In this document: one piece after another, positions 6,687-36,858 of the stretch
How positions within the stretch are numbered: position 1 is the first letter of the stretch
How the letters are laid out: every line of letters starts with the position of its first letter
NCBI GenBank assembly: GCA_016182385.1
Contig: JACPGV010000002.1
Coordinates: 253,190 to 317,189 of the forward strand
Length of the DNA stretch: 64,000 nucleotides
From: Candidatus Moraniibacteriota bacterium
GTDB lineage: Bacteria > Patescibacteriota > Minisyncoccia > Moranbacterales > UBA1568
Direction: 5' to 3'
Notes under the pieces: model-generated
Databases searched by the model: none
Told to the model about the DNA's origin: nothing
The model's input: only the letters and a program-made list of their open reading frames with translations
Translations under genes and position numbers: made by a program

Positions 6687-6862
6687 ATTCCTTTATTTTT
6701 ATCGCCAACAAGAAAACCCCCCTGTGGCGAATATTTTTCTTTTGTTTTTCTTTACACTAAAAGTATAAATGATTTTTTTAAGAAGAGCAAACGCATGATA
6801 ACGATGGGAGCGTTGTTTTTTGTCAAGAGGCGATAAACTTGAAGCGACAGATTTGGCACCCT

Positions 6863-6892
6863 TGACAAAAAATAAGAACGTGCGGTAATATT
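6863..6892 (+). promoter_or_regulatory. sigma70-like promoter (TTGACA-18-TAATAT) for the 6939 gene
   Basis: TTGACA at 6863-6868 and TAATAT at 6887-6892. The -35 box lies inside one arm of a 12-bp inverted repeat. Confidence 0.35.
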
Positions 6893-6938
6893 ATTTGACA
6901 GATAGGGAAGGGTTTAAGTATTGATAGGATAAAAAAAT

Positions 6939-8003: not shown

Positions 8004-8128
8004 TTTTCAATATGCGGTAGAAAAAAAATGGATTGTACGTTATAATGAAATCAAGAAAATAACCTGTTCGATTTTGAAAGAGGTTTTACCAATCATATCA
8101 AAACACGGGTCAACGCACCCCTACTCCG

Positions 8129-9430: not shown

Positions 9431-9436
9431 TGTTTT

Positions 9437-18720: not shown

Positions 18721-19878
18721 ATGACGTATAATCGTTATAAAAAATTCTTCTTTTTCTTAAGTGTGGCGCTTGCGGGCTTTGTTTTTTTGGGCATAGTAAA
18801 CGTTTTTTTTAGTTGTTACATTTTTCCCAAGTTGGCAACTATTCCTTTTTTCTCCGATCTGGATGTTTTTCGAAAAATGACGGAACGAGTGACGGTTATC
18901 AATAAGACCGAACAAGTGGTTGTTCGTGAAGATGATTCGCCGGAGAAAATAGCCTCTCAACCGGCAACCGCCATGGTTCGTATGGTGACTCTTTTTGATG
19001 GGCAAAAGGGAACAATTCTGGAGCCGCTTGTGCAAACCGGAGTATTACTGACTAATGATGGAATGTTGGCGATATACGAAGAAAACAGTTCGATACGTGA
19101 AGGGAGTCGTTATCAAGTAATTCTTTTTGATGGCTCTCAGCAAGAGGCAGAGTTTGTGGGGCGTGATTCTTTGATTCGTGTCAATTTTTTTCGTTTACGG
19201 GAACGCATGAATACGCCGGCCATGGCGTTTGCTAATTCTGATGACGTGCGAGTAGGAAAAAAAGTGATGCTTTTGCAATCGACGGAAACGGAATATCAGA
19301 ACCATTTTACTACTGGTATGATTGGCGCGTTTGATAAAACTTTTAATCTTTCTGCTAAAACCGTTTCTTTTTCCGACAACTGGGAGGGGGTTTTTAGAGT
19401 GTATGGGAGTGAGGCGGACTCTTTTGCTGGTGGAGCGGCAATCGGTTTTAATGGGGAAATGATTGGTTTGATCGGATCTTTTGTTGTTGATAATAAAATG
19501 GAAACTTTCATCATTCCCTCGAACATCCTTCGTGACTCTTTACAGCAAGCTATTGATGGCATGCTTGCGGATCGTCCGGTCCTTGGTTTGTATTATTTGC
19601 CTATTACGAAAACGCTCAAGCTTTCTTTGGGGCTTTCTCGTGATCGCGGAGCCCTGGTGTATTCTCCGTCCGGTAAGACAGGACTTGCTTTGCTTGTTGA
19701 TTCCAAGGCGGCACGCGTCGGATTCATGGCGGGTGATATTATTATGGCAATAAATGAGAGTGAAGTTGACGTGGATCACCCTTTGCCAAAACTTCTTCAT
19801 GGGTTAAAAAGAGGAGACAACGTTGTATTTACAATATGGCGTCATGATAAAGAGGAACGAAGAGAGATGATTTGGTAG
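18721..19878 (+). CDS. HtrA-like trypsin-fold protein with PDZ domain, catalytic triad degenerate (pseudoprotease candidate)
   Basis: It aligns to the htrA gene at 13111: GVLLTNDGMLAI versus GLVVTNKHVV (His lost), and SFAGGAAIGFNGEMIGL versus GNSGGPLFNLSGEVIGV (Ser lost). A PDZ-like C-terminus is present: …GDIIMAINESEVDVDHP…. Confidence 0.55.
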   Translation: MTYNRYKKFFFFLSVALAGFVFLGIVNVFFSCYIFPKLATIPFFSDLDVFRKMTERVTVINKTEQVVVREDDSPEKIASQPATAMVRMVTLFDGQKGTILEPLVQTGVLLTNDGMLAIYEENSSIREGSRYQVILFDGSQQEAEFVGRDSLIRVNFFRLRERMNTPAMAFANSDDVRVGKKVMLLQSTETEYQNHFTTGMIGAFDKTFNLSAKTVSFSDNWEGVFRVYGSEADSFAGGAAIGFNGEMIGLIGSFVVDNKMETFIIPSNILRDSLQQAIDGMLADRPVLGLYYLPITKTLKLSLGLSRDRGALVYSPSGKTGLALLVDSKAARVGFMAGDIIMAINESEVDVDHPLPKLLHGLKRGDNVVFTIWRHDKEERREMIW

Positions 19879-21901: not shown

Positions 21902-22858
21902 GTGGATATGGACGTGAAAAAAGTTTTGCTTGCTTCGCCACGAGGGTTTTGTGCTGGTGTGGCACGAGCGGTCAAGGCAGTGGAAGATACGCTCGCGATT
22001 TTTGGTGCACCGGTTTATGTGAAACATGAGATTGTGCATAATAAACATGTGGTCGCTTTACTTGAAGAGAAAGGAGCGAAAACGGTTGAAAACTTACCTG
22101 AAATTCCAGATGGCGCAGTGGTTGTTTTTTCGGCACACGGATCACCACCTGAACATTATATCGAAGCCAGGCGTCGTGGCATGCGACTCATCGATGCGAC
22201 GTGTCCACTTGTTACGAAAGTACATCTTGAGGTGCAGCGTTTTTTTAAAGAAGGATATGAAATTGTATATATTGGACACAGGGGTCATATTGAAGGTATC
22301 GGCGTCCGGGCGGAGGGCGGAGAAAGACACATACCGCTCGTTGAAACAATTGAAGATGTAGCTGCATTGGATATTGGTAATCCGGAAAAAGTCGTGTATC
22401 TCACCCAGACGACGCTTTCTGTTGACGAGACAGCCGAAGTTATTGTGGCTTTGAAGAAAAAATATCCACAGATTGTTGCGCCGCCGCTTGCGGATATTTG
22501 TTTTGCGACAACCAATCGTCAAAGTGCAGTGAAGGAACTTGCTCAGGCATCCGATCTTGTATTTATTCTCGGGTCAAAAACTTCATCCAATTCGACGCGG
22601 CTTATGGAGACGGCACGAGCCATTGGTACGAAGGCTTATCTTATTGATGATGTTTCTGACATTCAAGAAGAGTGGCTACTGGACGTGGCGACGGTCGGTG
22701 TTTCTGCCGGAGCGAGTGCGCCGGAACATGTCGTAGAGGATGTTGTTGCACATTTCGTCGATCACGGTGCAATCGTTGAGGATTTTGCGGTTCTTCCGGA
22801 AAATATGCGTTTTGCTGAGCCGATCGAATTGATGCATTTGCGACAGAATAGCGTATGA
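21902..22858 (+). CDS. ispH: 4-hydroxy-3-methylbut-2-enyl diphosphate reductase (IspH/LytB)
   Basis: LASPRGFCAGVARAV…HNKHVV…SAHGSPP…DATCPLVTKVH…TQTTLS…ICFATTNRQ. The three Cys ligands are present. The start is either the GTG at 21902 or the ATG at 21908. Confidence 0.9.
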   Translation: MDMDVKKVLLASPRGFCAGVARAVKAVEDTLAIFGAPVYVKHEIVHNKHVVALLEEKGAKTVENLPEIPDGAVVVFSAHGSPPEHYIEARRRGMRLIDATCPLVTKVHLEVQRFFKEGYEIVYIGHRGHIEGIGVRAEGGERHIPLVETIEDVAALDIGNPEKVVYLTQTTLSVDETAEVIVALKKKYPQIVAPPLADICFATTNRQSAVKELAQASDLVFILGSKTSSNSTRLMETARAIGTKAYLIDDVSDIQEEWLLDVATVGVSAGASAPEHVVEDVVAHFVDHGAIVEDFAVLPENMRFAEPIELMHLRQNSV

Positions 22859-23982
22859 ATATAGCTATCCAAGCGAGCGATCTTGATGCACAGAGAATTG
22901 ATGGAACGCGCGTATATCTTAAAAATCTTTTGGACCGTTTCGGAGCGCTCGCACCTGAGACGAAATTTTTATTATTTCACAAAGATGTTTTTAATCCGGC
23001 ACTTCTACCACCCGAGCGGTCGAATTATCGTCCAGTGAGTATCCCATTTCCATTTTCGTGGATGCAAACACGATTTGCTTTTGAAATATTTCGCGTAAAG
23101 CCGAATAAGCTTTTTCTGCCAATTCAGGCGTCGCCAATCTTTATTCCGAAAGAGGTGGAAGTAACAGCGACGATTCATGATTTGGCGTTCAAGAAATATC
23201 CGGAAACGTTTCCGAAAAGTCATCGCGCGAAGCTGGATTTTCTGCTTCGGACCGTCCTTTGTCGCGCTGATAAGCTCATCGCCGTATCCGCATCGACAAG
23301 GAAGGATATTCTGGAATATTTTCCAAATATTTTACCGGAAAAAGTACGTGTTATTCATCATGGTTTTGATGCCAAGTTTTTTTCCAAAAAATTTTCTGAA
23401 GGAGAGTTGAAAGAGATGCTTTCGCGGTATCGTTTGCATCCGAAAGGATATATTTTGTATGTGGGAGCGCTCCAGCCGCGGAAAAATCTCATTCGACTGA
23501 TTGAGGCATTCACGCTTGCGAAGCAAAGCGGCTCGCAAGAAATGAAACTCGTGCTCGCCGGCGAAGCAGCATGGCTTTCGGAGGGTATTTTTGGGGCACG
23601 TGAGAAAAGCTCGTATCGTGATGACATCATTTTTACTGATCGCGTATCATTTGATGATTTGCGCGTATTGTATCAAGGAGCGAAATTGTTCGCATTTCCG
23701 TCATTGTATGAAGGGTTTGGATTGCCAATTCTTGAAGCGTTCGCCTCTGGCGTTCCGGTGCTTACCGCGGACAACTCTAGTTTGCCGGAAGTTGGGGGAA
23801 ATGCCGCATTGTATTGCCAAGCGAAAAACGTTTTGGACATCGCTGAAAAACTTAAACAATTGTGGGGCGACGAAATGCTTCGTGCAGAATTAGTAAAACG
23901 TGGTAGTGAACGTTTGCAATATTTTTCGTGGGAGAGATGCGCGCAAGAGACTCTTGGCTGCATTTTCGATTCCACGCATTGA
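22855..23982 (+). CDS. glycosyltransferase family 4 (GT-B, group 1)
   Basis: A C-terminal EX7E-type region: SLYEGFGLPILEAFASGVPVLTADNSSLPEVGGNAA. Its ATG overlaps the ispH stop (ATGA). Confidence 0.8.
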   Translation: MNIAIQASDLDAQRIDGTRVYLKNLLDRFGALAPETKFLLFHKDVFNPALLPPERSNYRPVSIPFPFSWMQTRFAFEIFRVKPNKLFLPIQASPIFIPKEVEVTATIHDLAFKKYPETFPKSHRAKLDFLLRTVLCRADKLIAVSASTRKDILEYFPNILPEKVRVIHHGFDAKFFSKKFSEGELKEMLSRYRLHPKGYILYVGALQPRKNLIRLIEAFTLAKQSGSQEMKLVLAGEAAWLSEGIFGAREKSSYRDDIIFTDRVSFDDLRVLYQGAKLFAFPSLYEGFGLPILEAFASGVPVLTADNSSLPEVGGNAALYCQAKNVLDIAEKLKQLWGDEMLRAELVKRGSERLQYFSWERCAQETLGCIFDSTH

Positions 23983-25054: not shown

Positions 25055-26512
25055 ATGGCAAAAGAAAACATAGTATTGAGATTTGAGAATGTATCCTTTG
25101 AGTATGGACACAAAAAACCTATTCTTGATGAGGTGAGTTTTAGCGTGCGTAGTGGAATGAAGGTCACCTTGATGGGACAGAATGGGGCAGGAAAAAGCTC
25201 GCTGTTCAAGTTGATTACCGGTGAAACGCAACCGCAGCATGGGCACATCTCTATTGATTCCTTGGCGACGGTCGCGATTGCACGACAGGTCATTCCACGA
25301 GACGAGCTTGATTTTTCCGTGAAAGAGTTTTTTGTAAAACATTTTTCCGGAAAAGAGTGGGAGTTGGAAATGAATATTCGTGAGGTTTTGGAGATTGTTA
25401 ATATGCCCATGCCACCCCTTGAAAAGAAAATAAGGGAATTTTCTGGTGGACAGCAAGCGCGACTCCTTCTTGCTTCAGCGCTTATTCAGGATCCGGATAT
25501 TTTGCTTCTTGATGAACCGACGAACAATCTGGATTATGCAGGCATTGAACATTTGACGCAGTTTCTTGTGAATTATGAAAAAACTGTTTTAGTCATTTCT
25601 CATGACGCCGAATTTTTGAATGCTTTTACTCATGGAGTGTTGTATTTGGACGTTTTCACTCATAAAATTGAGCAGTACGCCGGTGATTATTATGATGTTG
25701 TTGAAGAAATCAAACGCCGTATTGAAAAAGAGCAAAGTGAAAATGTTCGTTTGGAACGCACTATTCGCGAAAAAAAGGATCAGTCGAATGTTTTTGCCAA
25801 CAAAGGTGGAAAGTTGCGCGCCGTAGCAAAACGAATGCGTGATCTCGCTGAAGAGCTTGAGGAAAATAAAGTGGATATTCGCCGTGAGGATAAAACGCTT
25901 TCACCGTTTACGATAGAGTGCGAAGATATTATTGGCCGAATCGTGCGCATTAAAACTGTGTCACTGGTGACGTCTCTGGGTCCGGCTATAAAGCACGTAG
26001 ATTTGGATTTGAAGCGTAATACGCACCTTCTTGTCTCTGGACCGAATGGCATTGGAAAAAGTACGTTTCTTGAAGCGCTTGCACGTGGTGATGAAGAGCG
26101 TGTCACTATTGCCCCGGGAGTCAAAGTGGGATATTATCGACAAGATTTTTCTACGCTTGATTTTCATAAAACAGTCGCCGAAACACTTCTTCCGGTAACG
26201 TCGGACGGAAGCATGGAAACGGTGTATCGTACGACAGCACGTTTTCTTTTACCAGCTGAGCTTGTGCAGAATAAAATAGAGAGCCTCTCAGAGGGACAGA
26301 AGGGGCTTTTAATGTTCGCGTATTTGTTTTTACAAAAACCGGAGTTGCTCATTCTTGATGAGCCGACCAACCATATCAATTTTCGTCATTTGCCGGTGAT
26401 CGCGGAAGCGCTCGACAAATACAAAGGCACAATGATCTTTGTTTCACATGTTCCGGGTTTCGTTGCTGATATCCGTATTGACGAAGTGCTTGATTTGGAA
26501 TCGCTTGTTTAG
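25055..26512 (+). CDS. ABC-F family ATPase (tandem ABC domains, no TMD)
   Basis: Two Walker A motifs (GQNGAGKSSL and GPNGIGKST) and two signature motifs (FSGGQQARL and LSEGQKGLL) with an inter-domain linker. A start at MAKENIVLRF (25055) is preferred over the upstream ATG at 25016. Confidence 0.85.
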   Translation: MAKENIVLRFENVSFEYGHKKPILDEVSFSVRSGMKVTLMGQNGAGKSSLFKLITGETQPQHGHISIDSLATVAIARQVIPRDELDFSVKEFFVKHFSGKEWELEMNIREVLEIVNMPMPPLEKKIREFSGGQQARLLLASALIQDPDILLLDEPTNNLDYAGIEHLTQFLVNYEKTVLVISHDAEFLNAFTHGVLYLDVFTHKIEQYAGDYYDVVEEIKRRIEKEQSENVRLERTIREKKDQSNVFANKGGKLRAVAKRMRDLAEELEENKVDIRREDKTLSPFTIECEDIIGRIVRIKTVSLVTSLGPAIKHVDLDLKRNTHLLVSGPNGIGKSTFLEALARGDEERVTIAPGVKVGYYRQDFSTLDFHKTVAETLLPVTSDGSMETVYRTTARFLLPAELVQNKIESLSEGQKGLLMFAYLFLQKPELLILDEPTNHINFRHLPVIAEALDKYKGTMIFVSHVPGFVADIRIDEVLDLESLV

Positions 26513-26928
26513 TATTTGACGGGTGTTTTCTGAAGGAGATATCCTGCCAAGAAAAATCCGCCGATAAGAAGAAAAATAATAATGGGAGGAAATTTAAAAA
26601 GAGATACACTCAGGAGTGCGATAGCAAGAAGAAGTCCGAAGGAAAAGAGCGGACTTTTTTTATTGAATGAAAAGGGGAAAGAGAGATGAAGAAAACGTCC
26701 GAGAGCGGCGAGAAAGAAAGAAAAAAAGACAAGAGCGGAGAGCATTTTTGTAAGACTGAAACGTGCGGTGACAAATGTGGGAAGCAGTGTTTCGATGGTA
26801 AAGAGTCCTATGAATCCGAGGTATCCTAAGAGGAGTGCTTCCGCAAGAAGAGCATAGCAGACGGCGAGGAGGCCATTTTCTTTAGCGCGGAGAAGTTTTT
26901 TGTGTATGGTTTGAGAGAGGTGTTTCAT
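26509..26928 (-). CDS. small hypothetical membrane protein (4 TM)
   Basis: A hydrophobic ORF overlapping its neighbours by 4 nt at both ends. Confidence 0.35.
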   Translation of the reverse strand: MKHLSQTIHKKLLRAKENGLLAVCYALLAEALLLGYLGFIGLFTIETLLPTFVTARFSLTKMLSALVFFSFFLAALGRFLHLSFPFSFNKKSPLFSFGLLLAIALLSVSLFKFPPIIIFLLIGGFFLAGYLLQKTPVKY

Positions 26929-28106
26929 AGTCGTTCGGATTGAGAAGAGGTAAGGCCAAATCGCGCGAGCAGGCGTTCTTTGATTTGTGAAAGAACAAAC
27001 AACATATTTTCTTTGTTTTTATTGGTGACAAAAGAAAGTGAAAGGGTGTTGATATCTAGAGCGGAAGAAGTATTGGTGATATGTATTTCGAAATCATTTC
27101 CGGGAGCGTCGCGTAGCGCTTCGAGCGAAGCGTGACAGGAGAAAGAGCGGCCAAAAAAAGAGCGTGTCGGAAGACACGTGGTTGCCACGGTACTCATACG
27201 CGAGGAGGCATTGATCGGGGACTGTTTGCTGAGAAGAAAATCACGGTACGTTGTGTCGATAAGAGAGCGCTTCGTGTTGTGGTCAACGAGAAAATAAGTT
27301 TTTGTTTCTTGATCAAAGAAAAGCGTTCCATCGGGATGAATGTCACCTAAAAGGAAAATTTTTCCGCGTTTGTAAATACCAATTTCTTCTTCACTTGATG
27401 GAATAACGTTTTTGAAATCATAGCCGAGCGCAAGAAAAATATCGGCGCTACCGATAGGGCGCATTTCGGTTTCACTGACAATGACGAATACCCCATCAGC
27501 GAAAGAGACGAGAGACCCAACACGAAAGCCGATCCATTCTTCGGAGCGTGGATAGGAAGCAAGGAATGAAGGCGAAACTTCTGTGGCAAAGTGTTTTGGG
27601 TATCGTGAAAGGTAGGCATTTTCACTGATGAAAGGATAGAGCGTATTGTCACGAAGGGCATAATAGGCAGTATCAGAATAGTAGAGAATTTCTTTGGGAA
27701 AAGATTGTATAGACATGCCGTGAGGAAGAAAAAAACCGCGATAGGAACGATAGAGGGAGACGTTGAATGGATTATCAGAATCAGGGATGGCAGATTTTTT
27801 TTCGAGGGAAAAACTGATAAGAGCGGTGGAAAAATTTCCAACGACACCAACATCGGCAATGAGGGTCCCATTTTTTTCCAGTTGCCCGTTTTTTCTTGTG
27901 ACGTGTTCTGGTGAGCGTGGATGGAGAAGATTGTTTTTACTGGAATCAGGCGCACGGAAATCAAAAGAGAATGTCAGTGTTGGAAACAATACTCGCAGGG
28001 AGAATGCAACAATGATTATACTGGTGACAATATAAAGGAGTATACGAGCAAAACGATAGGTTGATTGCCAGTGTGGCGCGATAACGACAGAGGAAAAAGG
28101 GTTCAT
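26925..28106 (-). CDS. hypothetical secreted/membrane-anchored protein (393 aa)
   Basis: An N-terminal signal anchor (ILLYIVTSIIIVAFSL). It is co-directional and overlapping with the GT-C-like gene. No known domain. Confidence 0.4.
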   Translation of the reverse strand: MNPFSSVVIAPHWQSTYRFARILLYIVTSIIIVAFSLRVLFPTLTFSFDFRAPDSSKNNLLHPRSPEHVTRKNGQLEKNGTLIADVGVVGNFSTALISFSLEKKSAIPDSDNPFNVSLYRSYRGFFLPHGMSIQSFPKEILYYSDTAYYALRDNTLYPFISENAYLSRYPKHFATEVSPSFLASYPRSEEWIGFRVGSLVSFADGVFVIVSETEMRPIGSADIFLALGYDFKNVIPSSEEEIGIYKRGKIFLLGDIHPDGTLFFDQETKTYFLVDHNTKRSLIDTTYRDFLLSKQSPINASSRMSTVATTCLPTRSFFGRSFSCHASLEALRDAPGNDFEIHITNTSSALDINTLSLSFVTNKNKENMLFVLSQIKERLLARFGLTSSQSERL

Positions 28107-28112
28107 AGTATT

Positions 28113-29930
28113 TTAGTGAATCTCGAAAAGAATAGTATTTGTTTCTTGGAGGATCGGTTCTGGTAGTTTGAGAGCAGAACCATCTTCGAGCGAGAGCGAC
28201 TCAAGACCTTCACGAATGAAGAGAATGGATTTTTTGAAAAGTAAACGTTCGCCAAAAATAGACATAAAGCGCTCCTGATCACTTTCGGGAACGAGAAGAT
28301 AGGTGTGTTCGTATGGCGTGAGATTGAGTTTTTCCAGATCATGGGGATTGAAAAAATAGACGGCATTCTTATTGAAGAGATATTGCATTGGACCGGTAAT
28401 CATGGAAAATCCATCGCCGGTCACGTGCCGATCGATGAGAATAAGATCGCGATCAGTGAAGACTTGGCTGAGAGCGGCTGTTTGTTCGATAAGTGACCGA
28501 TTTTCAGAAAAAGTGACGGCTCTTTTCCATGCTGGATACTGAAAGGAAATAAGTAAGAGAAAGATGATGGTGACAGAGAGAAGGCGATGGCCGGTTGGTC
28601 GAGTTATGGGAAAAATTTTTTCTTTCGCGAAGAGAAGGGCAATACCGATGATACTCGAAAAGAGAAGTGTTGGAAAAAGAGAAAAAAGATAGCGCCGAAG
28701 CATCCAAGGATGGTCAAGAGAAATATTTGGATCGAAAAGATACAGAAACGTTGGAAGTGCTATGGCCACCGGAAGGAGCGCCATGAAACGTCGTTCTTTG
28801 ATGATGATGAGTATACCGAAAAGCCCCATGGTAAAGAGTGTGAGGAGTCCATAGAGAAAGAAGACGGATCCGAGAGGAAACGATGTCTCGATCATCTCCA
28901 CACTATTGGCGATATTTCCTTGCTCCGCTTGACCGAGAAACTTCAGGAGTGCCTTGCCAATCATTTTATAATAGGGAAGATTGATGAAAAAATCCCTCAG
29001 AAAAAAGAACCCGAAAATAATACCAGGAAAAACAAGGCTTTTAAAGGGGGAACTTTTCCAAAGAGATATGGCGTGCGTACTGAAAAAAAGTAGAAGGAGA
29101 GAGAGACCGAGAAAGAGGAAGCCTTCAATGCGGGTAAAAGCAAAAAGTCCCCCGGTAAGGAGAATGCTGAAATAGTAAAGACGTTTTCCTTCCCGGAAAA
29201 ATAAAAGAAGATTAAAAACGAGAAATGTGAATAGAAAAAGTGCAAGATTTTCGCTGAGGGTCATTTTGGCAAACCAGAGAGGAAGAAAAGAGAACAGAGA
29301 AACAAGTAGGCCGGCACCGGCATAAAACGGACAAACAAAAAGACGCAAAAGATGATAGAGCGTGATGAAAAAAAGAAAAAGAAGAAGCGCGTTGCTTATG
29401 TTTGGGCCGATGAATCCAAAGACAGAAACGAAGGCGGCGAGCCACGCAGTGTAACCAAGAGGAAACTGTGTCACGAGGTATCCTCCGTCCGTGTAAGCGA
29501 AACCGGGAAAATTGAGTGCTGTACCTTCCCCGTAGATTTCAAAGAAGCTGATCGTGGTTTTATTGGTAAATGCCAGTTCATTGTTCTGAGCGAGACGGAA
29601 GGCGGCTTCGGCGATAGATCCTTGGTCGCGGCCGGAAAAGACGGTTGGTTCCGAAGAAAGGGCGATAAAAATAGCAAAACAGAGAGAGAGAAAAAAAACA
29701 ACGCGAATGTCGTTTTTCGCATGCCAAAGAAGTTTGATACCGATGAGGAGAGGTAATGCCCCGCCTATGAGGAGAGCAAAAACAAGAAGAGGAAAAAAGA
29801 AAAAGCCGCTTATGGCGAGGGAGAGCGTGAACCATCCAAACACCACAAAAAAAAGTCCGAAGAGGACGAAGGAAGTATGATTTTTTTCTGAAAAAGAGGG
29901 AAAAGTGATCATGAGTACAGTATAACGCAA
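28113..29930 (-). CDS. large polytopic membrane protein, GT-C-fold glycosyltransferase-like (ArnT/PMT-type) candidate
   Basis: Ten or more TM helices in the N-terminal 450 aa plus a soluble C-terminal domain. The topology matches GT39/GT83. Assignment is by architecture only. Confidence 0.4.
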   Translation of the reverse strand: MRYTVLMITFPSFSEKNHTSFVLFGLFFVVFGWFTLSLAISGFFFFPLLVFALLIGGALPLLIGIKLLWHAKNDIRVVFFLSLCFAIFIALSSEPTVFSGRDQGSIAEAAFRLAQNNELAFTNKTTISFFEIYGEGTALNFPGFAYTDGGYLVTQFPLGYTAWLAAFVSVFGFIGPNISNALLLFLFFITLYHLLRLFVCPFYAGAGLLVSLFSFLPLWFAKMTLSENLALFLFTFLVFNLLLFFREGKRLYYFSILLTGGLFAFTRIEGFLFLGLSLLLLFFSTHAISLWKSSPFKSLVFPGIIFGFFFLRDFFINLPYYKMIGKALLKFLGQAEQGNIANSVEMIETSFPLGSVFFLYGLLTLFTMGLFGILIIIKERRFMALLPVAIALPTFLYLFDPNISLDHPWMLRRYLFSLFPTLLFSSIIGIALLFAKEKIFPITRPTGHRLLSVTIIFLLLISFQYPAWKRAVTFSENRSLIEQTAALSQVFTDRDLILIDRHVTGDGFSMITGPMQYLFNKNAVYFFNPHDLEKLNLTPYEHTYLLVPESDQERFMSIFGERLLFKKSILFIREGLESLSLEDGSALKLPEPILQETNTILFEIH

Positions 29931-30030
29931 GAATATTATTTTTTCTAGGTTTTTTTGATGAGTGAGTGGTTTGCCAATATGAGGAAATATGTTTACAATA
30001 AAGGAAAAGAACTCGTTTAATAGATGAGGA

Positions 30031-32475
30031 ATGCGATTTCATTTTTTCTTTTGGTACTATACAGACGGTTTGCGTGGAGCGGGAGTGCTCATGTGGAATG
30101 CTTTACGTTTCACCGCTTTACATTTTTCGTTGTTGCCATTGTTACAGACACTTTTTTTTCCATGGAAGCGTGATGTTTCTTTCCGGGCGTGGAGGGGATT
30201 TCATCCCTTGAAATTTTTTGGATTAGCATTCAATAATATTTTTTCTCGATTTTGGGGGGCAATGGTGCGTTTGGTTGTTTTAATGTTTGGCGTTCTGATT
30301 TTTTGCGTTGTTTTTCTTTTCGGGGGAATGTTTTTTTTGCTTTTTTGTTTTGGGCCGCTTCTTTTGGGGAGTAGTGTTGTTTTGTATATTTTTTCTTCTT
30401 CTCTTGGTTTTTGGTTTTCTCTTTTTGGTTTTTTCGGTTGTCTTATTGCTTTTTTGGGATATGTTATGAGAGAGAAAGACATTGTGCCCGTTTTTGACAT
30501 ACGTGTTCTGCGGCGAAAAAGCTTTTTTAAACGTATTTTAGCGAGGTTGGGCCTTCACCACGTGGAGACGGCGCATTTGGAGAACGATGCTTCATTTTCA
30601 GAATTTCTTCAAAAAAATACTCTTGAAAGAACACTTTTTGAAAAGGCTGTCCTTATCGAGTGGGCCGCGGCTGTGAAGCGATCGCGAAAGAAAAAATTTT
30701 GGCTTTGGGATAATTTGAAAAAGACAAGGCCAATCGGTAAGGGATGGTGCTATGCGTATACCCCCAAACTTGATCAATATGTTGTTGATCTTTCATCGCA
30801 TGATCCGACGGAATATCGCGAGATGGAATTAGTCGGTCGCCGCGAAGAGTTTTCCGTTACAGCGCTTGTATTGAAGCGACCAGTGGAGAATAATGTCGTG
30901 ATAGTAGGTGATCCGGGAATCGGTAAAAAAACATTGGTACATTATTTTGGACGCTCCTTGAGGGAAAATGTGTTTCGGGGCGATCGTTTGGGGGATGCCC
31001 GTCTTTTGCTTTTTGATATAGGTGCTGCCATAAGTGACGCCGTGGGTCATGGGCAAGATCCGGAATATTTTTTACGAACGCTTTTTCTTGAAGCCGCGTA
31101 TGCCGGTAACGTTATTTTGGTTATTGAAAATATTGATACGCATTTTTCCGGTAATGGCATGCACTCTTACCTGCCTTCTCTTTTTACCGAGTTTCTACAA
31201 TTACCGACATTTCGCGTTATCGCCACCGCTTCTACCAATCAGTATCATGAGCTCATAAAAAAAGAAGCGCAGGCCTTTAAGTTTTTTGAGACAGTGTATA
31301 TACGTGAGCCCAACGAAGCGGAGACGTTTGATATTCTTCTTCATTTTTTTGAAGAAAGCGAAAGACAAAATGTTGTTTTTACCATTCAAGGTCTTGAGGC
31401 GATTATTGCTTTTGCTAGTCGGTACCATTGGGAAACTCCTTTTCCAGAACGAGCTATCGATCTTGCTCAGGAAATACTTCTGTATTGGCAGGGAACGGAT
31501 GATCAGTATATTACTCCTGGCGTGGCACATGCATTTTTTTCTTTGAAGACTGGAGCGTCAACGGGAGCGGCGGAAGGAGAAGAGCGAGAAAAATTATTGC
31601 ATTTGGAGGAGCTTTTGCATGAGCGAGTCATTGGACAGACGGAAGCTGTTCGTGAAGTGGCGGAGGCTATGCGTAAGGCGCGCGTCGGTTTTTCTGATCC
31701 CAAGCGACCATTGGGAAGTTTTATTTTTTTCGGACCAAGCGGTGTTGGAAAAACAGAAACAGCGAAAGCGTTCGCGGAGAGTTATTTTGGTGATGAAAAA
31801 AAGATGATTCGTTTTGATATGAGCGAGTTTCAAACACCGCAATCGATTGATAGGATGATCGGTTCTCGAATTACTAATGTTCAGGGAGAACTTGTGAATG
31901 CGGCAAAAGAAAAACCGTTTTCTATTCTTTTGCTTGATGAGATAGAAAAGGCATATCCGAGGGTTTTGGATTTATTTTTGCAAATTCTTGATGAGGGATA
32001 TGTGACGGATGGTTTTGGCGAAAAGGTGAGTTTTCGTAATATGATTATTATCGCGACCTCCAACGCTGGAGCGCCACTCATTAAGTCACTTGTTGCAGAG
32101 CAGGCTTCAATGGTGGAAATTCGTAAACAAGTGCTTGATCATATTATCGAAAAAAACATTTTTCGTTTGGAATTTTTGAGTCGTTTTAATGGATTGATTT
32201 TTTTTGAACCGCTCAAACAAACAGAACTTGAAGCAGTGGCAATGCTCAAGCTACAACATTTTGCTGATCGCTTGAAAAAAGAAAAAAACATTACGGTCGT
32301 TTTTGATTCGGATGTCGCTTCTTTGGTGGTAGAACGGGGATTTGAAGCGGAATTTGGTACTCGTTCACTGAATCGTTTCATAGAGAATGCCATTGAGGAT
32401 GTCATGGTAAAAAAAATTATCGCCGGCGAAGTTACCGAAGGAAGTGTTTTTCGGGTATCTGGTAATGAACTGTGA
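30031..32475 (+). CDS. membrane-anchored ClpB/ClpC-like AAA+ protein (N-terminal ~150-aa TM region; degenerate D1; intact D2; no N- or M-domain)
   Basis: D1 has Walker A GDPGIGKKT (Lys at the S/T position) and Walker-B-like ILVIENID. D2 reads LHERVIGQTEAVREVAEAMRKARVGFSDPKRPLGSFIFFGPSGVGKTETAKAFA, with Walker [11 protein letters not shown], sensor 2 and a ClpB_D2-small region. The N-terminus is highly hydrophobic. Confidence 0.75.
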   Translation: MRFHFFFWYYTDGLRGAGVLMWNALRFTALHFSLLPLLQTLFFPWKRDVSFRAWRGFHPLKFFGLAFNNIFSRFWGAMVRLVVLMFGVLIFCVVFLFGGMFFLLFCFGPLLLGSSVVLYIFSSSLGFWFSLFGFFGCLIAFLGYVMREKDIVPVFDIRVLRRKSFFKRILARLGLHHVETAHLENDASFSEFLQKNTLERTLFEKAVLIEWAAAVKRSRKKKFWLWDNLKKTRPIGKGWCYAYTPKLDQYVVDLSSHDPTEYREMELVGRREEFSVTALVLKRPVENNVVIVGDPGIGKKTLVHYFGRSLRENVFRGDRLGDARLLLFDIGAAISDAVGHGQDPEYFLRTLFLEAAYAGNVILVIENIDTHFSGNGMHSYLPSLFTEFLQLPTFRVIATASTNQYHELIKKEAQAFKFFETVYIREPNEAETFDILLHFFEESERQNVVFTIQGLEAIIAFASRYHWETPFPERAIDLAQEILLYWQGTDDQYITPGVAHAFFSLKTGASTGAAEGEEREKLLHLEELLHERVIGQTEAVREVAEAMRKARVGFSDPKRPLGSFIFFGPSGVGKTETAKAFAESYFGDEKKMIRFDMSEFQTPQSIDRMIGSRITNVQGELVNAAKEKPFSILLLDEIEKAYPRVLDLFLQILDEGYVTDGFGEKVSFRNMIIIATSNAGAPLIKSLVAEQASMVEIRKQVLDHIIEKNIFRLEFLSRFNGLIFFEPLKQTELEAVAMLKLQHFADRLKKEKNITVVFDSDVASLVVERGFEAEFGTRSLNRFIENAIEDVMVKKIIAGEVTEGSVFRVSGNEL

Positions 32476-33656
32476 TTATGAATATATTAGTTGTCGCACC
32501 CACGCCGTTTTTTTCTGATCGAGGGACACATATTCGTATTTTGGAAGAAGCGCTCGCGCTTGAAAAGCGTGGACATGAGGTAACAATCGCGACGTATCAC
32601 ATCGGTGCGGATATTCCGAAACACTTGCATTCACGTATTGATGTGCGTCGCATACGGAGACTGCTTTTTTGGTACAAGAAATTGGAGGCCGGTCCGGATT
32701 GGCAGAAAATCATCCTTGATCTTTTACTTATCAAGAAAACGTTTTTTCTCGCTCGTACAAAAAAACCGGATATTATTCACGCGCATTTGCATGAAGGCGC
32801 GCTTATTGGTTGGATTGTCCAGAAGGTGCTTTTTTGGCATCGAATACGTTTAGTGGTGGATTTTCATGGAAGTTTGACGAAAGAAATGGTATCACATCAT
32901 TATCTTCGAATGAGCGGATTATTTTTTCTTTTTCGATGGTTGGAGAAGTGTATTGACAACATGGGTGATGCGGCTGTTACCAGTTCGTGGGAAAATACTG
33001 ACGATATCAACACTTTGCGTCGGAAAAAAGACGCGGAAACGCTTCTTGATGGCACACGTCTTTCAATGTTTGACGGCGTATTGGAGAAATCAGTGCTTCG
33101 GGAACGATATGGCATTTCGCGTGACGCGATCGTTATAACCTATACCGGAGCACTTATTCCGAACAAGGGCGTAGGACTCTTTCTTGAGATGATTCCACTC
33201 GTTTCTGCTCAATACCCAAAAGTGCATTTTATTATCGCCGGATTTCCTCTTAATGAGATAGCGGGTTTTTTACGGCAGGACGTTTTTCGTACACGAGTGA
33301 AGGTTATCAGCCCATTGTCGTATTTTGATCTCCCGAGTGTTTTGAAGATGAGCGATATTGGTGTTGACCCGAAAGAAGCGACAACGCGACAAGCAAGCGG
33401 AAAAATGCTTCAATATATGGGGGCAGGGTTGCCGGTGGCGTGTTTTGATACCGCGAACAATCGTGAATATTTGGGTGAGGGCGGAGTCTATGCTTCTGAA
33501 ACGACCGCTAAGAGTCTTTCTCACGCACTCGGCATACTTATAGAAAATGAAGTGCTTCGACGAGAAAAAGGGGAGATTAATTTCGTTCGTTCAAAACAAT
33601 TTAGTTGGGAAAAATCAGCGGAAATATTGGAAAAAATATACAAAAAATTGTTATGA
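32472..33656 (+). CDS. glycosyltransferase family 4
   Basis: A GT-B protein with C-terminal …GALIPNKGVGLFLEMIPLV…KVHFIIAGFP…. Its ATG overlaps the previous gene's stop. Confidence 0.8.
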   Translation: MIMNILVVAPTPFFSDRGTHIRILEEALALEKRGHEVTIATYHIGADIPKHLHSRIDVRRIRRLLFWYKKLEAGPDWQKIILDLLLIKKTFFLARTKKPDIIHAHLHEGALIGWIVQKVLFWHRIRLVVDFHGSLTKEMVSHHYLRMSGLFFLFRWLEKCIDNMGDAAVTSSWENTDDINTLRRKKDAETLLDGTRLSMFDGVLEKSVLRERYGISRDAIVITYTGALIPNKGVGLFLEMIPLVSAQYPKVHFIIAGFPLNEIAGFLRQDVFRTRVKVISPLSYFDLPSVLKMSDIGVDPKEATTRQASGKMLQYMGAGLPVACFDTANNREYLGEGGVYASETTAKSLSHALGILIENEVLRREKGEINFVRSKQFSWEKSAEILEKIYKKLL

Positions 33657-34831
33657 AACTCTTTCTTATAAAAATCGGAAAAGCGTGGGATGTGCTATGT
33701 CGTGATGGGATAGTAAGGGGTAGCAAGCGAGTAATGTTTGCCTTTTTAAAACTTTTTCGAAGAGTTTTTCCTGGGGATGTTTTGTTTATATCAAATGGTG
33801 TCGGTGACAGTGCCAGATATCGGACAGTGCATATGGCTGAGATGCTAAAGAAGCAGGGTGTTCGCGCGTCGGTTACGGTGCAAGATAATCCCTTTCTTCC
33901 TTCGTATGCCAAGCAATTTTCCGTATTCGTTTTTCACCGAACGTTATTTTCTCGAAACGTGGAGAAACTTCTGGCGCGCGCAAAAACACTGGGAAAAGAA
34001 ATTATTTTTGAAACGGATGACTTGGTATATGATCCCATGTTTTTGCAACACATGGATTATTTCAATCAGATGAATGTTTTTGAGCGTAAATTGTATGAAA
34101 ATGGTGTGGGTGGCGAGATTCTTTCTGATCCGTACGTGAAGGTATGCACGACCTCGACGACTTACCTTGCAGAAAAGTTACGTGAAAAGAAAAAACAGGT
34201 GTTTGTTGTACGTAATTGTTTGTCGCAAGAAGATATTACGAATGCTGAAACGATAATGATGAGAAAAACAAAGCGTGATATGTTTGTGCGATTGGCATAT
34301 TTTTCCGGCACTCCAAGTCACAATAAAGATTTTGCGACCATTACGGACGCGCTCCTTGCCGTGATGGAACGGTACCCGCAAACGAAATTGGTATTGGCAG
34401 GACCGCTTGATGCTGACGATCGGCTGAACATGGTGAAGGATCGTATCGAGCGAGTGTTGTTTTCCCCACGACGGGATCATTTTGGTAACATCGCCACAGT
34501 AGATATAAATCTCGCGCCACTCGAAATAGGTAATCCGTTTTGTGAAGCGAAATCGGAATTGAAGTGGTTTGAGGCGGGACTCCTAGCCATACCCACGGTC
34601 GCCTCGGGAACGCAAACATTTCATGAGGCGATAACGGATGGCGTAGATGGTTTTGTGGCTAGCACAACGGCGGAGTGGATAGAAAAAATATCGTGTTTAG
34701 TGGAAGATACAACCTTTCGACAAATGATGGGAAAGAATGCGCATGAAACGGTGTTGAAAAAATACACGACAGAGCACGGTGATGAAGAATATATTCGGTA
34801 TATAAAGAGTAAATTAGCAAGAAAAATATGA
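33653..34831 (+). CDS. glycosyltransferase, GT-B fold (group 1-like)
   Basis: …KLVLAGPLD…ELKWFEAGLLAIPTVASGTQTFHEAITDGVDGFV… is a GT4-like C-terminal half. Its ATG overlaps the upstream stop (ATGA). Confidence 0.65.
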   Translation: MKLFLIKIGKAWDVLCRDGIVRGSKRVMFAFLKLFRRVFPGDVLFISNGVGDSARYRTVHMAEMLKKQGVRASVTVQDNPFLPSYAKQFSVFVFHRTLFSRNVEKLLARAKTLGKEIIFETDDLVYDPMFLQHMDYFNQMNVFERKLYENGVGGEILSDPYVKVCTTSTTYLAEKLREKKKQVFVVRNCLSQEDITNAETIMMRKTKRDMFVRLAYFSGTPSHNKDFATITDALLAVMERYPQTKLVLAGPLDADDRLNMVKDRIERVLFSPRRDHFGNIATVDINLAPLEIGNPFCEAKSELKWFEAGLLAIPTVASGTQTFHEAITDGVDGFVASTTAEWIEKISCLVEDTTFRQMMGKNAHETVLKKYTTEHGDEEYIRYIKSKLARKI

Positions 34832-35781
34832 AAATACTTATTACGGGTGGCGCGGGATTTATAGGTTCCGCAACGGCAAAGCAGTTGGTAGGTCGTGGTG
34901 ATACGCCGATTCTTATTGATAATTTCAATGATTACTATGATCCGAAATTAAAAAGAGATCGCGTTGCCAAGTTTCTCAAGGAATGTAAAGGAAAATTCAG
35001 GCTCTATAAAGGAGATATTCGTGATCGGAAATTTCTTGAGCGTGTTTTCAAAAAAGAACACCCGGTAAAGGTCATTCATTTGGCGGCGATGGCCGGTGTG
35101 CGGAGTTCACTCGATAATCCGGGACTCTATGTTGATGTCAATATTTTGGGAACAGTCAATCTTCTTGATATGGCGGTCAAATACAAAGTGAAGAATTTTG
35201 TTTACGCCTCTTCCTCATCGGTGTACGGCAATAATACAAAGGTGCCGTTTTCTGAAACTGATTCTGTCGATACTCCGGTATCTCCGTATGCCGCTACCAA
35301 AAAAGCGACGGAGCTTTTGGCACATGTATACAGTCATATCCATGGGCTGAAAACGACTGGACTTCGTTATTTCACGGTCTATGGTCCATGGGGTCGTCCG
35401 GATATGGGAGTGTTCAAATTTATTGAAAATATCATTTGCGGCAAAATGATCGATGTCTACAATTTTGGTAAGATGCGTCGAAATTTTACCTATATTGATG
35501 ATATTGTTTCGGGGACAATCACGACTCTTGACGCTGATTTGCCGTGTGCTGTGATGAATATTGGCGGTGATCGTGACGAGGCGCTTCTTGACTATATCGC
35601 CTTAGTGGAAAAGCATTCTGGCAAGAAAGCAAAAAAACGAATGTTGCCGATGCAACCGGGAGATGTGCCGTCGACGGTCGCTGACATTAAAAAACTTCGT
35701 AAACTTGGCTGGAAACCGACGACTCGTATTGATGTTGGGGTAAAAAACTTTGTAACATGGTATAAAGAATATTATCGATGA
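34828..35781 (+). CDS. NAD-dependent epimerase/dehydratase (UDP-sugar 4-epimerase-like, extended SDR)
   Basis: MKILITGGAGFIGSATAKQL…YASSSSVYG…YAATKKATE. It has a Rossmann GxxGxxG motif and YxxxK. Confidence 0.85.
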   Translation: MKILITGGAGFIGSATAKQLVGRGDTPILIDNFNDYYDPKLKRDRVAKFLKECKGKFRLYKGDIRDRKFLERVFKKEHPVKVIHLAAMAGVRSSLDNPGLYVDVNILGTVNLLDMAVKYKVKNFVYASSSSVYGNNTKVPFSETDSVDTPVSPYAATKKATELLAHVYSHIHGLKTTGLRYFTVYGPWGRPDMGVFKFIENIICGKMIDVYNFGKMRRNFTYIDDIVSGTITTLDADLPCAVMNIGGDRDEALLDYIALVEKHSGKKAKKRMLPMQPGDVPSTVADIKKLRKLGWKPTTRIDVGVKNFVTWYKEYYR

Positions 35782-35793
35782 TAATTTTTCCTT

Positions 35794-36858
35794 ATGGCAT
35801 ACACGCGGCGTGATCATACGGGGATAAGTCTGGTGATACTTGAAGCTTTTGGAGCATTTGCTTTTTGGTATTTCTTTTTTGAGAGTGTTCGGATGTCGAG
35901 TATTGGTGGTATTTGGCAAGTCATCTTTTCGTTTTTTATTTTGGCCGTTTTCTTTTTTATAGGAGCAGTCGTGTGGAAGGGGGCGATAGTGAGAAGCGCG
36001 GGCGTCGCTATGCTTCTTTTTCCCAGTTTTCTTTTTTTACAATCGTGGGAGTTTGTCTTGGCGAATGTCTTGGCTTTTCTTTTCCTTTATAGAAGTGCTT
36101 CTCATATCAGTGGTGAAACGATAGAGAGACTGCGTTTTCATTTTTTGAAAAGTGCGCGGGCCGGAAAATTTCTTTTTGGTTTTTCGTTTGCTCTCCTTTT
36201 GAGTTTTGGTTATTACGTGACCATAAAAGATGTTTCTTTGGAAAATCTCATACCGCGTTTTGTTTTGGGTGACAATACGATGAAGATGGCCTTGAGGGGC
36301 GCTGGTATGCTCCATGAGGATTTTTCCAAAATCCTTGAAGAGGATGGTACGGTTGATGAATTTCTTTTGGGTGTGGCCCAGAAGGAAAAATACTCTTCTG
36401 ATGTTCAGTCACAAGAAGGAATGTTTTCTTTGGAAACGGACGACTTATGGAATGTGTTTTCTGGAATAAGCGCTGATGCCATAACGACTGATTCTGCTTT
36501 TGAACAAAGTGGGCAGGCTTTTGAAAAAGAGATTTTTCTTCATGCAGGCCGTGAGCAGATAGCCCAATTTGTTGGACAGCCGATTACCGGCACGGAGAAG
36601 GTGTCTGATGTTTTGGCGTCTATCTTACGTAATAAGCTTACCGGTTTCGCTCAAAACTCAACAGAGGAACATATTTTTTCTTCTTCCGCGCTTTCTTTTT
36701 TTCTTGCCATGCTTCTTTTTCTCACTCTTCTTTCATTGGTACCGATTATCAATGCGCTGGCTATTTTTGTAGCTTTTCTTCTTTTTCAATTACTTCTGGC
36801 GACAAAATGTCTTTCGTGGGAAGAGGCGACAATACAGTGTGAACGTCTGGCACTCTAA
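35794..36858 (+). CDS. hypothetical membrane protein (354 aa)
   Basis: Multiple TM helices at both ends with an acidic central region. No known motif. Confidence 0.35.
   Translation: MAYTRRDHTGISLVILEAFGAFAFWYFFFESVRMSSIGGIWQVIFSFFILAVFFFIGAVVWKGAIVRSAGVAMLLFPSFLFLQSWEFVLANVLAFLFLYRSASHISGETIERLRFHFLKSARAGKFLFGFSFALLLSFGYYVTIKDVSLENLIPRFVLGDNTMKMALRGAGMLHEDFSKILEEDGTVDEFLLGVAQKEKYSSDVQSQEGMFSLETDDLWNVFSGISADAITTDSAFEQSGQAFEKEIFLHAGREQIAQFVGQPITGTEKVSDVLASILRNKLTGFAQNSTEEHIFSSSALSFFLAMLLFLTLLSLVPIINALAIFVAFLLFQLLLATKCLSWEEATIQCERLAL

Follow-up and report, generated by a model that had tools for sequence, protein, structure and literature searches.

The window analysed here is a 64,000-nucleotide (nt) stretch of contig JACPGV010000002.1 from Candidatus Moraniibacteriota bacterium, with ~43% GC and dense coding. 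On its forward strand, an open reading frame (ORF) of 814 amino acids (aa) encodes an AAA+ ATPase of Clp/Hsp100 type, in which two AAA+ modules (D1 and D2) follow a predicted N-terminal membrane anchor (Table 1). This gene heads a same-strand run that continues with two GT-B glycosyltransferases (GTs) of families GT4 and GT1 and a sugar epimerase. Upstream of it, across a divergent intergenic region, three genes on the opposite strand encode a polytopic protein of GT-C fold, a 393-aa protein (p393) and a 139-aa small membrane protein (p139). The public gene call for the ATPase (P0001) begins at Met21 and gives 794 aa, and the family alignment favours the longer, 814-aa start. The identical protein is found on three independent contigs, while NCBI records identical to two neighbouring gene products (HYV45_01580 and HYV45_01575) belong to a Candidatus Moranbacteria metagenome-assembled genome (MAG).

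Table 1. Features of the ATPase gene, its neighbourhood and the canonical ClpB of the same window (window positions)
Feature	Positions	Strand	Description	Basis
Membrane-anchored two-ring Clp/Hsp100-like AAA+ ATPase	30031-32475	+	814 aa	ORF; Pfam; NCBIfam; PDB alignments; 29-sequence alignment
Conserved juxtamembrane N-module	30031-30258	+	aa 1-76; outside any Pfam family	Invariant columns
Hydrophobic membrane anchor (predicted)	30259-30471	+	aa 77-147	Kyte-Doolittle scan; family hydropathy; K/R distribution
Basic soluble linker into D1	30472-30816	+	aa 148-262; conserved RLGL, E210, RFWxWENL and YAYTPHLDxY	Family alignments
Degenerate D1 ring	30817-31545	+	aa 263-505; P-loop, Walker B, Arg fingers and pore loop altered	E. 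coli ClpB alignment; 191-member statistics
D2 ring with intact catalytic motifs, and ClpB_D2-small	31621-32472	+	aa 531-814; pore loop at aa 609-621 (nt 31855-31893)	Pfam; ClpB alignment; invariant columns
Divergent intergenic region	29913-30030	.	118 bp between the GT-C ATG (29912, -) and the ATPase start	
GT-C-fold polytopic glycosyltransferase	28113-29912	-	599 aa from ATG 29912; 605 aa from TTG 29930	
393-aa protein (p393)	26925-28106	-	N-terminal transmembrane helix; beta-rich ectodomain with a predicted carbohydrate-binding-module-like beta-sandwich	
139-aa small membrane protein (p139)	26509-26928	-	About four hydrophobic segments; 4-nt overlap with the 393-aa gene	Hydropathy
GT4 (GT-B) glycosyltransferase	32472-33656	+	Glyco_transf_4 and Glycos_transf_1; 4-nt overlap with the ATPase stop (32472-32475)	Pfam
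GT1-family (GT-B) glycosyltransferase	33653-34831	+	ATG overlaps the GT4 stop by 4 nt (ATGA, 33653-33656)	Pfam
NAD-dependent NDP-sugar epimerase/dehydratase	34828-35781	+	4-nt overlap with the GT1 stop	Pfam Epimerase (2e-54)
Third GT4 glycosyltransferase	22855-23982	+	Weak second match to PF20706 'GT4-conflict' (30 bits); in 32 of 40 full-flank loci	Pfam
Canonical ClpB	14643-17273	+	876 aa; two Clp_N repeats, intact D1 and D2, M-domain, GYVG pore loops; 13 kb upstream of the ATPase gene	

By homology the 814-aa protein is a class-I Clp/Hsp100. Pfam recognised AAA_2 (aa 559-720, 8e-41) and ClpB_D2-small (aa 728-809, 1e-16), with only a faint match to AAA_16 over D1 and none at all within aa 1-260. 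In a phmmer search of the PDB, aa 247-482 aligned with residues 161-397 of Escherichia coli ClpB over D1 (70 bits), and aa 507-813 with residues 544-850 over D2 (235 bits). The two tandem AAA+ modules and the C-terminal D2-small domain that mark the class are both present. The ORF, the Pfam matches and the PDB alignment together bear out the Clp/Hsp100-like protein proposed for this position in the initial annotation; with over 190 homologues, it is neither a chance nor a chimeric reading frame.

Yet every tested feature that defines ClpB, ClpA/ClpC, ClpV, FtsH or Torsin is missing from the protein. The NCBIfam models for ClpB, ClpA, ClpK, ClpG and TssH all matched far under their cut-offs. 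The two ClpB models scored 358.9 bits against a cut-off of 1232.1 (TIGR03346) and 312.8 against 1417 (PRK10865); the ClpA model, although spanning aa 233-809 end to end, scored 314 against 993, and the ClpV/TssH equivalog 281.9 against 884.95. No type VI secretion gene was present among the window ORFs scanned. Pfam detected neither Clp_N nor Peptidase_M41 in the product. Because merely 25 aa (482 to 507) stand where ClpB has 147 (397 to 544), the M-domain is absent, and with it the coupling site for Hsp70/DnaK. A ClpP-docking loop was not found either: the stretch between SNAGA (aa 677-681) and FRLEF (aa 711-715) lacks any [ILV]G[FL] tripeptide and carries no insertion when aligned with ClpB.

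The canonical ClpB encoded 13 kb upstream shares 37% identity with the membrane-anchored protein in D2 and 26% in D1. The latter is therefore an extra paralogue, and a role as the organism's substitute for ClpB is ruled out. A defence-system reading (Dodola) was likewise rejected: the PADLOC matches to DolB (7.8e-31, limited to aa 398-678) and PDC-M37B together cover just aa 398-681 of the ATPase, and no neighbouring protein matches any PADLOC model, leaving no partner gene.

Comparison of the two rings with the textbook Walker, pore-loop and Arg-finger motifs of ClpB supports a D1 that is predicted to be non-catalytic throughout the family and a D2 that would be the only catalytic ring. In D1, the P-loop is GDPGIGKKT (nt 30907-30933) against GEPGVGKTA in ClpB, so that the Lys is kept and the Mg-binding Thr is replaced by Lys. 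Walker B is VILVIENID (nt 31111-31137) against VILFIDELH (DE to EN), the Arg fingers are FKFF against ERRF (RR to KF), and the pore loop is DAVGHGQD against AKYRGEFE, with its Tyr gone (KYRG to VGHG). Motif statistics from 191 full-length members show the same pattern. Position 299 is K in 84% and R in 16% of them; position 300 is K in 53%, R in 24% and H in 9% (K/R/H 86%), with S/T in 3%; position 301 is T/S in 83%; and a P-loop of the form G-x-x-G-x-G-K-[KRH]-[TS] is conserved. The first acidic position of Walker B retains E/D in 86%, the catalytic position is N in 55%, D in 14%, H in 11% and E in 5% (also S or G), and the Arg-finger site is K in 81% and R in 3%. The D1 Walker motifs that had been annotated as non-hydrolytic in this one protein are thus degenerate family-wide. 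On mean pairwise identities computed by region on the family alignment, D1 stands at 49-53% and the D2 large domain at 68%. The D1 value indicates purifying selection, and the motif pattern across the 191 members argues that the degeneracy is old, family-wide and selected.

In D2, on the other hand, GKT is found in 100% and DE in 99.5% of the same members, and an alignment of 29 homologues shows no variation in Walker A and B, in sensor-1 N678, or in R712/R718 and R778/R782. As every catalytic motif is kept there, D2 is the sole candidate motor ring. Its earlier description as intact is correct for these motifs but not for the pore loop, which is GSRITNV-QGE against GAPPGYVGYEEGG of ClpB, that is, 4 aa shorter and devoid of Tyr. 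At positions 612-619, the six commonest residues at each position include no aromatic, and the pore-loop-2 region LDEGYVTDGFG is conserved. With ClpB/Hsp104 the protein thus shares two AAA+ modules in one chain, a homologous D2 with D2-small and the lack of a ClpP-docking loop, but it differs in having no Clp_N, no M-domain, a degenerate D1, neither pore-loop Tyr, and instead a membrane anchor and a novel module. With ClpA/ClpC/ClpE it shares two rings without a full M-domain, but it has no IGF/IGL tripeptide, no Clp_N and no aromatic pore loops, its D1 is apparently dead and it is predicted to be membrane-anchored.

The region preceding D1 had been described as ~150 aa of transmembrane (TM) helices replacing the N- and M-domains of Hsp100. 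Both domains are indeed absent, but three segments, of which one is hydrophobic, occupy the space. The first (aa 1-76) is a module without any Pfam match even at E<=1, whose invariant residues among the 29 homologues include F32, P44, W45, D48, G56, N69 and G76, with R80 just past its end; its motif is SPW[KR][KR]D, and its mean pairwise identity (51%) is level with that of D1. The second appears as a single hydrophobic block at ~aa 77-147 in a Kyte-Doolittle scan, within which the 29 homologues share a charge-free stretch of ~65 aa (aa 81-145) with a dip at aa 121-125. The mean pairwise identity of this block is only 27%, and it is therefore its hydrophobicity, not its sequence, that is conserved. 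Lys plus Arg per sequence average 6.1 at aa 44-80 and 7.3 at aa 148-180, yet 0.3 in the internal dip. Given K/R-rich flanks on both sides, the positive-inside rule suggests that the anchor is most likely a hairpin of two TM helices with both ends in the cytoplasm, which would also place the AAA+ rings in the cytoplasm. The third segment is the basic linker at aa 148-262, which is not a remnant of Clp_N (hhalign probability of 0.3% against the N-domain of the window ClpB). The hydropathy and charge pattern together with the D2 motifs agree with the proposal that the protein is membrane-tethered and carries a single catalytic ring.

The architecture is widespread. A search with aa 1-516 retrieved over 120 proteins of ~816 aa with 36-53% identity across the whole N-terminal half, from Moranbacteria, Minisyncoccota and the Patescibacteria group, under records labelled just 'AAA family ATPase' or 'ClpA/ClpC'. 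A profile search with the first 262 residues returned 1451 clusters at 50% identity (E<=1e-3), 697 of them at E<=1e-10, and wherever the source organism of a member was named it belonged to the Patescibacteria. The fusion, which the initial annotation suggested seeking in other genomes of the candidate phyla radiation (CPR), is therefore found there in numbers. Its members have several architectures: proteins of ~800-830 aa; proteins of ~885-897 aa with a longer insert before D1; and many stand-alone proteins of ~125-136 aa that consist of a PW[KR]R motif module and two TM helices (among them P0329, P0340, P0346, P0353, P0366, P0375 and P0381). For example, at locus L006 the gene of the stand-alone protein P0375 (6001-6399) overlaps the start of an ATPase gene (6377-8947), the 856-aa product of which has two TM helices, a weak Clp_N match, a D1 with GEPGTGRVS and Walker B DD, and the D2 pore loop GSEGVEG. 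Two further stand-alone genes overlap a downstream gene that begins with two TM helices, their contigs ending before the ATPase domains. As the N-module is found both fused and as a split, overlapping gene, it is functionally part of the ATPase. Neither the N-module nor a membrane-integral Hsp100 was found described in the full-text literature searched, in Pfam or in NCBIfam, which is not proof that no description exists; the family of membrane-anchored class-I Clp/Hsp100 proteins is apparently undescribed, as had been supposed for its architecture.

The genes around the ATPase fall on either side of the divergent intergenic region, which harbours a promoter-like TTGCCA-17-TACAAT at 29971-29999 (+), a consensus match only and not evidence of function. 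On the reverse strand, sequence searches of Pfam, NCBIfam and the PDB with the 605-, 393- and 139-aa products gave no usable match, and the folds of the two larger ones were resolved by structure prediction and fold search only. The modelled fold of the 605-aa neighbour is a GT-C polytopic fold, in agreement with its initial assignment. Its residues R101-D102-Q103-G104 are invariant and, in the prediction, follow the third helix (73-92) and open a long loop with two short helices; a soluble alpha/beta domain is predicted at the C terminus. Identification of p139 as GtrA (PF04138) or as an SMR/DMT flippase was rejected, as four orthologues gave no such Pfam match even at E<=10 and the likeness is one of size and segment count.

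On the forward strand, the 4-nt overlaps between the ATPase and GT4 genes, GT4 and GT1, and GT1 and the epimerase suggest co-transcription and translational coupling. The sugar epimerase had been correctly recognised; its NCBIfam GalE score (176 bits) lies under the cut-off of 262, and no substrate specificity is therefore assigned. The three GT4 enzymes claimed for 28113-35781 reduce to the two GT-B genes of the run, while a third GT4 gene lies outside that interval, farther upstream. Its co-occurrence with the GT-C triad (the genes for GT-C, p393 and p139) in 32 of 40 loci makes membership of the same module probable. Among the neighbours no GT2 polyprenyl-phosphate glycosyltransferase was recognised, and no Wzx or ABC flippase was recognisable in the cluster. 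The next gene downstream (35794-36858, +) encodes a membrane protein of 354 aa that lacks a Pfam match and has a soluble middle part between terminal TM helices; this gene is present in 4 of 40 loci, all of close relatives, and is thus not core to the module. A Bac_transf polyprenyl-phosphate sugar-1-phosphate transferase, an initiating enzyme, is encoded at 60522-61964 (+), 24 kb downstream of the cluster. On the P0093 contig, a homologue is encoded upstream of the module. The transferase of the window could supply the same glycan pathway.

Conservation of this neighbourhood was followed across species. All of five homologues at 43-100% identity are accompanied by the divergent three-gene set. 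In a scan of one genome per GTDB species, 121 loci were confirmed and 80 kept, the three triad proteins being detected by hidden Markov models and the other neighbours by phmmer. The GT-C gene is upstream on the opposite strand in 58 of the 69 loci with at least 3.6 kb of upstream sequence (84%), with the full triad in at least 54 of these, and the pairing persists at N-terminal identities down to ~32%. Where downstream sequence sufficed, a GT4 or GT1 gene was found within 3 kb in 49 of 64 loci and the epimerase in 45 of 64; a GT4 orthologue starts on the same strand within -30 to 150 nt of the ATPase stop in 41 of 50. Among 40 loci with full 10-kb flanks, GT-C was found in 32, p393 in 32, p139 in 31, the upstream GT4 in 32, GT4 in 27, GT1 in 28 and the epimerase in 27, while housekeeping neighbours were much rarer (ABC-F 14, LytB 15 and DnaJ 4); the 354-aa ORF was found in 4. 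When two distant GT-C homologues were taken as the starting point instead, the ATPase gene lay next to each of them, once across a 100-N gap. These co-occurrence counts support an eight-gene module as the conserved unit, with the ATPase in a conserved glycan-assembly locus rather than a chance neighbourhood. The envelope-glycosylation locus drawn at 26509-36858 accordingly stands as a glycan cluster, but the ORFs at 26509-26928, 26925-28106 and 35794-36858 are not glycosyltransferases. Its conserved partners are the divergent triad, which the initial annotation had not singled out. A chaperone link through the downstream DnaJ gene was discarded as incidental, DnaJ being there in only 4 of the 40 full loci.

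These observations lead us to a tentative reading of the protein as a D2-driven, non-proteolytic remodelling ATPase of the membrane face, probably recruited in Moranbacteria to envelope-glycan assembly. By analogy with other AAA+ proteins, it would form a hexamer at the inner membrane face. There D1 would serve as a nucleotide-binding or structural ring, and ATP hydrolysis in D2 would remodel, assemble or extract membrane-embedded clients; other AAA+ proteins with one non-hydrolysing ring exist. Clients would be contacted through the N-module and the TM hairpin and not by threading past tyrosines as in ClpB. In Moranbacteria the clients or partners would most probably be the products of the divergent operon (GT-C, the carbohydrate-binding-module-like ectoprotein p393, and p139) together with GT4, GT1 and the epimerase, the two sets of genes together assembling, on this view, a glycoconjugate of the envelope out of lipid-linked sugars. 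The neighbours fit the general logic of lipid-carrier GT-C systems (ArnT with ArnE/F; GtrA/GtrB/GtrC; YfhO/CsbB/GtcA; PglB; PMT), sharing with them a GT-C enzyme, a small polytopic protein, a cytoplasmic GT-B, an NDP-sugar epimerase and, elsewhere in the window, a Bac_transf enzyme. They differ in that the GT-C protein here matches no Pfam family and p139 has no similarity to GtrA or SMR, and to our knowledge none of those systems contains an AAA+ ATPase. The more specific role envisaged initially, that of a motor extracting or unfolding glycoproteins of the envelope or components of an S-layer, is weakened. It presumes canonical threading, whereas in the 191 members aromatics are not among the common residues of the pore loops of either ring, and no gene for an S-layer or glycoprotein substrate was identified.

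Several points weigh against the proposed role in glycan assembly. The functional assignment depends on gene order, some of whose conservation may be inertia, as CPR genomes retain much synteny. The predicted rings offer no aromatic pore loops by which a client could be gripped. Furthermore, the triad is absent within 10 kb in 11 of the 69 species loci, and neither the split-gene locus L006 nor locus L093, which encodes an 888-aa variant, has glycan genes. The neighbours in the exception loci include NrdR/ComEC/MBL, an MFS transporter with LytR-CpsA-Psr, a MASE3-PAS sensor and an amidohydrolase; Map/MetK are also among the unrelated neighbours of these loci, L006 and L093, and no alternative conserved partner emerged in any of them. 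Since the ATPase family is wider than the glycan cluster, its ancestral role was probably not glycan-specific, and the glycan link may be lineage-specific and not family-defining. Either the ancestral role was general and recruitment took place in Moranbacteria, or the partners are encoded elsewhere in the exception genomes.

It is possible, though on balance unlikely, that the protein is instead a general quality-control or extraction ATPase for membrane proteins, comparable to Msp1/ATAD1 or to FtsH without its protease, with many clients and a synteny with glycan genes that reflects co-regulation or retention. The size of the family (1451 clusters) and its several architectures, the unrelated neighbours outside the core Moranbacteria clade and the poor conservation of the anchor would all suit such a role, and the reduced genomes of Patescibacteria make a single membrane-face remodeller plausible. 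Difficult to reconcile with it are the tight same-strand placement with 4-nt overlaps to glycan genes and the 84% triad pairing over deep divergence, as well as the invariant N-module, which suggests a specific ligand or partner. FtsH, Msp1/ATAD1 and Bcs1 do share with this protein an N-terminal TM anchor that sets an AAA+ ring at the membrane face and, presumably, membrane-embedded clients. Those proteins belong to the classical AAA clade, however, and have one ring with aromatic pore loops, to which FtsH adds an M41 protease, whereas here a two-ring Hsp100 has neither a protease domain nor aromatic loops; Msp1 and FtsH both rely on the very loops that are missing.

That loss directs attention to the Torsins, membrane-associated relatives of Clp/Hsp100 without the aromatic pore loops needed for processive unfolding (PMC5425593). 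The protein might be a comparable ATP switch, in which D2 would control oligomerisation or the state of the N-module and TM hairpin and so gate a partner such as the GT-C enzyme without translocation, an account that we consider improbable. The likeness comprises an N-terminal hydrophobic membrane association, a D2-like Clp/Hsp100 module and pore loops without aromatic or hydrophobic residues, as in Torsins (PMC5425593), to which may be added a D1 reduced to a conserved non-catalytic scaffold; it is an analogy, and no evidence of descent was sought or found. Torsins, which belong to the eukaryotic ER and nuclear envelope, are lumenal single-ring proteins whose missing Arg finger is supplied by the membrane-bound cofactors LAP1/LULL1, whereas the protein here has two rings, predicted to be cytoplasmic, and its own invariant D2 Arg (R712/R718). 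With these Arg and sensor-2 retained no external activator would be needed, and the two rings and conserved LDEGYVTDGFG are typical of working translocases.

Were it a translocase, the protein could be a self-contained translocon: the TM hairpins of six subunits (at least 12 helices) would form a pore through which D2 pushes an envelope protein or a lipid-linked glycan, in the manner of HSP101-EXP2 (PTEX) or Bcs1. We regard this, too, as improbable. In its favour, TM helices are joined to the ring in one chain, the cluster shows no recognisable Wzx or ABC flippase, and the GT-C enzyme (by textbook knowledge) and the p393 ectoprotein act outside the membrane. Against that, the TM block is the least conserved part of the protein, unexpectedly for the lining of a pore, aromatic pore loops are missing, and AAA+-driven flipping of a glycolipid is without known precedent. 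PTEX of Plasmodium (HSP101 plus EXP2) is similar in concept, as it couples a ClpB-type hexamer to an assembly that spans the membrane, and HSP101 (6e10/6e11) is among the PDB matches to D2. But HSP101 is a soluble protein that retains its active rings and the tyrosines of its pore loops and binds to a pore formed by another protein; in the family described here, the TM segment is either part of the chain or encoded in the same operon, and the pore loops have degenerated.

The loss of the D1 catalytic motifs and of both pore-loop tyrosines might also be taken for decay of a functionless ClpB paralogue, or the gene for a fusion or assembly artefact, but both are effectively refuted by the conservation pattern: over 190 full-length homologues have the same architecture, the catalytic residues of D2 are conserved to 99.5-100%, the D1 P-loop, though unusual, is itself conserved, N-module residues are invariant and the identical protein stands on three independent contigs.

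A bolder reading, in which we place little confidence, is that the AAA+ hexamer, its PW[KR][KR]D module and its TM hairpins make up, together with GT-C, the p393 ectoprotein and p139, a new ATP-driven machine for envelope assembly. By hydrolysing ATP, D2 would translocate or hand over its cargo, either a lipid-linked glycan or a nascent glycosylated envelope polymer. If true, AAA+ power would here offer an alternative to flippases of the Wzx or ABC type, a reading that would account for the lack of a recognisable flippase in the cluster and would make protein-gripping tyrosines dispensable.

Hsp100 machines are textbook soluble threading motors, and one built into the membrane, powered by one ring and devoid of aromatic pore loops would extend the known repertoire of the fold and provide a counterpart in prokaryotes of the Torsins, themselves poorly understood. 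Within the Patescibacteria, whose cell-envelope biology is almost unknown, the family is large, and in Moranbacteria its pairing with a GT-C enzyme as yet unclassified marks out an eight-gene envelope-glycan module that can be tested. The public labels 'AAA family ATPase', 'ClpA' and 'ClpC' are generic or mistaken for this family, whose members should not be tallied as ClpB, ClpA or ClpC when the chaperone and protease capacity of CPR genomes is inferred.

Some further features were observed in the window and the sampled loci. The canonical ClpB is flanked by two HtrA-like Trypsin_2 plus PDZ proteases (13111-14391 and 18721-19878, +) and a SurA/PpiC-like protein (12010-13044, +), an envelope-proteostasis neighbourhood that recurs at L087 and L088. 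At 8129-9430 (+), a 433-aa ORF without a Pfam match precedes a TrwB/VirD4-like coupling ATPase with a treble-clef zinc finger (9437-11383, +), and on the P0093 contig a matching pair (a 433-aa DUF8128 protein and a TrwB-like ATPase) is encoded only a few kb away from the AAA+ homologue. A SecD-like protein encoded at 52314-53993 (+) carries a PpiC-type isomerase domain (Rotamase_3, 6e-22, aa 148-234) between the SecD_1st and SecDF_P1_head segments of its periplasmic P1 region, an unusual fusion. At L063, the AAA+ homologue is divergent not from the triad but from an MFS transporter and a LytR-CpsA-Psr glycopolymer ligase (7057-8559, - and 8629-9789, -), a single case that again points to the cell envelope. 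Finally, numerous MAGs among the GTDB representatives with a locus of the Moranbacteria type (L008, L011, L015, L017, L023 and others) are titled 'uncultured Bdellovibrionales' (TPA_asm); as their gene content and synteny match Moranbacteria loci, these titles look like a labelling problem.

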